The notes beneath the pieces were generated by a model. It saw only the letters and a program-made list of their open reading frames with translations. It searched no databases and was not told the DNA's origin. This document shows positions 2,909 to 3,003 of a DNA stretch of 3,003 bases, one piece after another. The position numbers and the translations under genes are program-made. Location of the stretch: the NCBI RefSeq assembly GCF_003334385.1, contig NZ_QOWN01000096.1; one strand, given 5' to 3'. Each line of letters starts with the position of its first letter. Within the stretch, counting starts at the first letter, position 1. This DNA comes from Escherichia coli (lineage in GTDB: Bacteria > Pseudomonadota > Gammaproteobacteria > Enterobacterales > Enterobacteriaceae).

Positions 2909-3003
2909 TTACGAAAGCCCGCACCCCGCAAGGACTGACGCCAGATAGTTTCTGTCCATGGCTGCTTTTCGCATCTTACGTCTTAACCCTGCCTTGAATA
3001 CCT
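2909..3003 (-). CDS. Possible 3' end (last 31 codons) of an unidentified upstream gene; start beyond window
   Basis: The minus-strand frame is open from the window edge to TAA at 2911..2909 and encodes ...[30 protein letters not shown]. Composition is GC-normal, unlike the adjacent AT-rich segment. An open stretch of 31 codons can arise by chance (roughly 1 in 4), so this is weak. Confidence 0.2.

Follow-up and report, generated by a model that had tools for sequence, protein, structure and literature searches.

The Rhs loci of E. coli have been described as carrying H-rpt elements together with displaced C-terminal tips (PMC3032704), and orphan rhs-CT/rhsI modules have been described as displaced fragments (PMC3967940). 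Transposition of H-rpt has reportedly not been observed so far (PMC3032704). The element considered here is closest to the H-rpt/ISEc1 elements of E. coli Rhs loci (for example yhhI in RhsB, ydcC and ybfL/ybfD of K-12), which belong to the ISAs1 family and with which it agrees in its termini and in its length of 1,291 bp, and in K-12 and in loci L001, L008 and L009 H-rpt/ISEc1 likewise comes directly after an rhs tip with its immunity gene. The right end of the usual copy abuts non-Rhs chromosomal DNA, whereas the copy in the window, the whole 3,003-nt stretch of E. coli DNA analysed here, abuts with its right end a different rhs toxin gene, of which only the 3' end is left, and lies between two rhs genes. 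Like the orphan rhs-CT-rhsI modules (PMC3967940; 'C-terminal tips' in PMC3032704), the window locus has an older toxin/immunity pair downstream of a main rhs gene with a different tip, and its immunity gene is kept intact as in those modules. Typical orphan modules, however, keep a toxin fragment and some core, whereas the window locus keeps 15 toxin codons with the IS terminus as their boundary, and it is an orphan immunity gene rather than an orphan toxin/immunity pair. The third system for comparison is the RhsH-type 'rhs core-dsORF-h1' module of RefSeq: the small ORF of the window is 99% identical to the dsORF-h1 behind the intact toxin of APEC O78, but the cognate core extension (the toxin tip) is absent in the window's lineage. 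In the literature searched we found no publication on dsORF-h1, and the original descriptions of H-rpt and RhsH lie outside that literature, so that what is said of them here follows RefSeq product names and general background. H-rpt/ISEc1, Rhs tip/immunity modules and orphan immunity genes are all of known kinds and annotated in RefSeq. The features of the window are as follows.

1-2312, minus strand: 5' part of rhs2, a full-length rhs core gene with its start codon at 2312-2310 ('RHS element core protein' in RefSeq over identical DNA).
2389-2838, minus strand: small ORF of 149 aa, labelled 'RHS element protein dsORF-h1' by RefSeq (WP_001372445.1).
2850-2898, minus strand: 3' relic of the gene for an upstream Rhs C-terminal toxin, consisting of 15 codons (VDGPLQTMKITGTPE) and a stop, recognized by identity to APEC O78 (L005 9001-9049).
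2899-3003, minus strand: terminal 105 bp of the 1,291-bp H-rpt/ISEc1 element, delimited by a three-copy comparison.
2909-3003, minus strand: 3' end (last 30 codons) of the H-rpt/ISEc1 (ISAs1-family) DDE transposase gene, in frame from 3001, with the stop codon at 2911-2909.

We have high confidence in the overall reading that the right end of ISEc1 is joined to the base to the toxin relic, and that dsORF-h1, the probable cognate immunity gene, is left as an orphan in a T6SS-1 locus.

The original prediction of a possible gene end 70 bp before the small ORF proved correct, as a 378-aa gene in identical DNA ends at the stop codon 2911-2909, which is separated by 70 nt from the start of the small ORF at 2838. 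By its identity to the APEC O78 gene, this 70-nt 'spacer' is seen to hold the last 15 codons and the stop of an Rhs C-terminal toxin gene that is cut off by the IS terminus. Positions 2897-2850 of the window translate into VDGPLQTMKITGTPE followed by a stop; the Rhs ORF of APEC O78 ends in ...GLGHEFAHAQ...LPFYRVDGPLQTMKITGTPE and a stop, with the tip reading ...GHEFAHA...FYRVDGPLQTMKITGTPE up to the same codon. In a four-way alignment the window follows the H-rpt end of K-12 up to CCCTG and then the Rhs-toxin sequence, with the switch at 2899/2898 and the breakpoint ambiguous by 1 nt (a G common to both sides). From GGTGGATGG onward the window is identical to APEC O78 (L005 from 9001).

The Rhs proteins of APEC O78 and PCN033 have a divergent tip after the conserved PxxxxDPxGL end of the core, and the residues up to this motif match the RHS_core and Rhs_assc_core profiles. 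The toxin tip of APEC O78 (L005 8540-9049) bears an HExxH motif (HEFAH). Nothing above threshold was found for the tip in Pfam or NCBIfam, its single sub-threshold signal in Pfam being Peptidase_M91 (E = 0.003), and a search against PDB sequences returned no relative with a solved structure. Metallopeptidase activity of the toxin tip may be taken as a lead, not as a finding. Because HEFAH in the tip goes together with a signal-like N-terminus in its partner dsORF-h1, there are hints that the toxin could be an uncharacterized metallopeptidase acting in the periplasm.

Wherever the toxin is intact (L005, L004 and L006), the small ORF starts 11 nt past the Rhs stop codon, and the toxin tip and the small ORF are co-oriented. 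The GC content of the small ORF (28-42%) and of the toxin tip (27-45%) differs from that of the Rhs core (61-67%). The N-terminus of the small ORF is hydrophobic and signal-like. In the window the ORF is intact and differs at 2 of its 149 residues from the copy in APEC O78, which has kept the toxin; it shares 84-85% identity with the homologues in PCN033 and GF43. Moreover, the toxins of PCN033 and GF43 have diverged in parallel with the small ORF, yet both keep HEFAH. Because of this position, composition and co-variation with the toxin, dsORF-h1 is probably the immunity gene of the deleted upstream toxin and would now be an orphan. Its immunity function is assigned from position, and dsORF-h1 matches no characterized family, as searches against Pfam (E ≤ 10), NCBIfam and PDB gave no match.

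Chaperone genes of the EagR/DUF1795 family are often found upstream of the genes for T6SS Rhs effectors. The small ORF, which lies 76 nt upstream of rhs2 on the same strand, might by this analogy be an adaptor or chaperone for the downstream PAAR-Rhs protein encoded by rhs2, with the IS merely located upstream of an X-rhs effector module. This explanation is very unlikely. With no Pfam match of any kind at E ≤ 10, the small ORF has no DUF1795 domain, and its hydrophobic, signal-like N-terminus is unlike those of cytoplasmic chaperones; its GC content of ~30% is like that of the upstream toxin tip and unlike the 60-70% of the rhs2 core. Furthermore, the small ORF follows the upstream Rhs stop codon by 11 nt in 974 genomes, and in APEC O78 it is kept together with the upstream toxin, no rhs gene being annotated downstream. 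The earlier suggestion that the small ORF occupies an immunity or adaptor position in a vgrG-X-rhs module holds for the immunity position, since the order vgrG-rhs-small ORF-rhs is found in PCN033 and GF43; the small ORF, however, belongs with the upstream deleted rhs and not with the downstream rhs, and the adaptor reading is disfavoured.

The locus is the T6SS-1 region between tRNA-Asp (aspV) and yafV, with the order hcp-vgrG-rhs1 (with a different tip)-immunity gene-324-bp AT-rich spacer-ISEc1-toxin relic-dsORF-h1-rhs2-immunity gene-ISAs1-yafV. The fullest version with the junction of the window is that of AP022177 (L008), which reads hcp-vgrG-rhs1 (1,506 aa)-immunity gene (WP_001077738)-AT-rich spacer-ISEc1-dsORF-h1-rhs2; here vgrG precedes rhs1 and is located ~13 kb upstream. 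No IS is present in PCN033, which shows hcp-vgrG-rhs1 (with the HExxH tip)-dsORF-h1 homologue-rhs2, and in GF43 this module, likewise without the IS, lies at the yncH/ydcC locus.

Several further observations were made on these loci. In L008 (NZ_AP022177, 12185-20256) ~7 kb of nested IS66-family elements (ISCro1 and ISEc47) interrupts the ISEc1 copy that precedes dsORF-h1; this locus is a sink for IS insertions. In BUCT2930 (L002, NZ_CP059723, 7926-9095) the IS in question lacks its 5' part and is joined to a fragment of a VasL-domain gene, and within the 18.7-kb stretch of L002 nothing to the left of the IS is annotated as T6SS-related except an Hcp-family gene and the VasL fragment. In APEC O78 (L005 9061-10907) dsORF-h1 is followed ~260 bp further on by the yafV-side ISAs1 copy, which has an internal stop; the arrangement in this strain, with no downstream rhs annotated, agrees with a recombination or deletion in which H-rpt copies took part. 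It is also evident that a block composed of an rhs tip, its immunity gene (WP_001077738/737), a ~324-bp AT-rich spacer and H-rpt recurs (L001 7113-9105, L008 11339-12262 and L009 8339-9958), and this block is present at two Rhs loci, the aspV/yafV T6SS-1 locus and the pptA/yddH locus. The recurrence suggests that the block is passed between loci as a unit.

To set the ends of the IS, we compared three copies in unrelated flanks.

L001, copy 1: 7815-9105, 1,291 bp.
L001, copy 2, adjoining yafV: 17049-18339, 1,291 bp.
K-12, yhhI copy (L003): 7235-8525, 1,291 bp.

The sequence common to the three copies extends from CAGGGAAAGA... to ...TAATCTTGCCCTG and is exactly 1,291 bp long in all three. The terminal inverted repeats, CAGGGAAAGA and CAGGGCAAGA, are short and match imperfectly (at 9 of 12 positions, all 9 among the first 10), and the CAGGG...CCCTG ends are conserved in each of the three copies. 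In the window the right terminal inverted repeat is CAGGGCAAGATT (plus strand, 2899-2910), which overlaps the stop codon of the transposase, and the final base of the IS is position 2899. A generic inverted-repeat search did not report the termini of the IS, because they are too short and imperfect for such a repeat finder. A BLAST alignment of copy 1 with copy 2 of L001 ends at the stop codon, the last bases of copy 2 having diverged.

A target-site duplication is the hallmark of a simple recent insertion, and a copy may belong to an IS family without one. Comparison of the flanks revealed no target-site duplication in any of the three copies: there is no direct repeat between AAGACTTTGGAG before and GGTGGATGGACC after the L001 copy, between CGAGTCAACGGC and AATACAGGACTG around the K-12 copy, or between TGAGCGCAGGGG and ACTCTCCCCGTC around copy 2. 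For an IS, the lack of target-site duplications in all three copies is unusual; it accords with the report that H-rpt has never been seen to transpose.

The junction lies exactly at the terminus of the IS, as transposition predicts, and one may ask whether the IS is a recent simple transposition that merely interrupted the toxin gene, in which case the 5' part of the toxin would be found just beyond the IS. We give this explanation hardly any weight, because in the lineage of the window the left end of the IS adjoins the immunity gene of another rhs tip and an AT-rich spacer instead of the rest of the HExxH toxin gene. Moreover, no target-site duplication is seen in the flanks GACTTTGGAG and GGTGGATGGA, and a synthetic junction between toxin DNA and the left end of the IS was found in none of the 5,426 complete E. 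coli genomes that make up our sample. With no target-site duplication, a foreign left flank and no toxin DNA at the left end of the IS, a replacement or deletion would explain the junction rather than a simple insertion.

As to the gene that ends at 2909, the minus-strand frame 3001..2909 translates into the C-terminal peptide quoted in the original prediction, and the remaining two minus-strand frames over 2909-3003 contain stops. The window segment 2300-3003 shows 100% identity to many E. coli chromosomes. In one of these, NZ_CP025903 (L001), the same frame ends an uninterrupted 1,137-bp gene of 378 aa (WP_000420722.1), which RefSeq labels 'ISAs1-like element ISEc1 family transposase' and which ends at the equivalent of window position 2909; the C-terminus of this protein is identical to the 30 residues of the window. 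The full-length transposase matches PF13808 (DDE_Tnp_1_assoc) at residues 8-94 (7.6e-34) and then PF01609 (DDE_Tnp_1) at residues 102-343 (4.8e-30), and the full-length protein of the identical locus scores 416.2 bits against a cutoff of 70 with NCBIfam NF033564 (transpos_ISAs1; E = 8e-125). It is 98% identical to YhhI of K-12, where the gene order rhsB-yhhH-yrhC-yhhI places yhhI downstream of rhsB-yhhH; yhhI is the ORF of the H-repeat (H-rpt) of RhsB. The transposase gene is found in 4,991 of the 5,426 complete genomes, at a median of 4 places per genome. These matches identify the gene ending at 2909 as an ISAs1-family (H-rpt/ISEc1) transposase gene, an identification that rests on identity to full copies elsewhere, as the window itself holds 30 codons only.

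A frame at the edge of a window can easily stay open for 30 codons by chance ((61/64)^30 ~ 0.24), which is why outside evidence was needed to call a gene end, but that the frame 2909-3003 is a mere chance ORF has a practically negligible probability, as it shows 100% identity to the final part of a gene of 378 aa that matches Pfam and NCBIfam families strongly and occurs in so many genomes and at several places in each. The C-terminal peptide, which the original prediction had not recognized, is that of the ISEc1 transposase WP_000420722.1, and the substantial ORF expected beyond 3003 is present in the best-matching genome, where the transposase frame continues past the equivalent of position 3003 without a stop or frameshift. 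Two proposals about this gene have to be given up. Its product is a DDE transposase by Pfam and NCBIfam, and not the product of vgrG or another toxin gene; and as an ISAs1-family transposase gene it is not a housekeeping gene next to which the small ORF and rhs had formed an island, which leaves the island unsupported at this boundary. The best whole-window identity in the collection of 5,426 genomes is 99.7%, and the intactness of the gene is read from the matching genomes, not from the source strain. Because the IS is 5'-truncated (L002) or split by IS66 elements (L008) in other genomes with the same junction, the transposase in the source strain may be non-functional.

We estimated how common each arrangement is among the 5,426 genomes using junction-specific queries of 80 bp and 304 bp. 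The junction from the intact toxin to dsORF-h1 is present in 974 genomes (~18%), and that from the IS end through the relic to dsORF-h1, the form of the window, in 43, all with the junction in identical form, for which a single event would be expected. There are 1,017 matching records overall, and the difference 1,017 - 974 = 43 agrees with the two independent junction queries. The 1,061 genomes in which at least 80% of the 2300-3003 query is covered do not measure the presence of the IS, as the IS makes up 15% of that query. Judged by these junction counts, the window carries a derived, minority allele. The left junction of the IS is found in 136 genomes, and it therefore also occurs with other right flanks. 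In fact, the same left flank and IS are followed by yafV in UMNF18, and by pptA at a second, RhsE-like locus in FORC_041 (L009).

These comparisons show directly what the IS is and where it ends, that a toxin relic adjoins it, and that the toxin gene was ancestrally next to dsORF-h1; from here on the steps are those we infer. The IS-relic join would have been made by transposase chemistry, which is suggested because the junction lies exactly at the IS terminus; this step is weakened by the report that H-rpt transposition has never been observed (PMC3032704). Given the missing target-site duplication and the foreign left flank, two routes could have led to the join. In the first, an intramolecular attack of one IS end on the toxin gene would have removed the intervening stretch (adjacent deletion). 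In the second, a simple insertion would have been followed by recombination with another H-rpt copy, which would have imported a new 'rhs tip-immunity-H-rpt' block. No intermediate genome that would separate adjacent deletion from insertion plus recombination was found among the 5,426 genomes. By either route, the outcome accords with the displaced C-terminal tips and orphan modules known from Rhs loci (PMC3032704; PMC3967940), except that here the immunity gene alone survives.

We infer that dsORF-h1 would neutralize the HExxH toxin, for which its signal-like N-terminus makes the periplasm the probable site, and that the retained immunity gene would still protect the cell against neighbours firing this toxin. 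A scan for promoters revealed no more promoter-like sites than in shuffled sequence, and no terminator-like site was found within window positions 2250-3003. As no such site separates the transposase gene from the co-oriented dsORF-h1, transcription could read through from the one into the other; similarly, because the 76-nt gap from dsORF-h1 to the rhs2 start (2313-2388) contains no terminator-like hairpin, dsORF-h1 and rhs2 could be co-transcribed. The same gap shows a sharp jump in GC content, from ~30% to more than 60%, the GC content of rhs2 being 57-73% against ~30% in the small ORF.

It is thus as the partner of a deleted upstream Rhs toxin, and not as an accessory of the downstream rhs, that the small ORF should be read. 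The remodelling of toxin loci by IS elements is in general already well described for Rhs and CDI systems, and the locus in the window clearly illustrates how a polymorphic-toxin locus can be reshaped by an IS so that an immunity gene is left as an orphan. A further-reaching interpretation, which we put forward only tentatively and regard as somewhat doubtful, is that the base-exact join, with its foreign left flank and no target-site duplication, is a footprint of H-rpt transposase activity in which an intramolecular attack led to adjacent deletion, that H-rpt swaps Rhs tips and in doing so strands immunity genes, and that dsORF-h1 is a defensive orphan. If this is true, H-rpt would be an active agent in Rhs loci rather than a passive passenger, and the orphan dsORF-h1 would guard its host against a toxin that is intact in ~18% of complete E. 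coli genomes.
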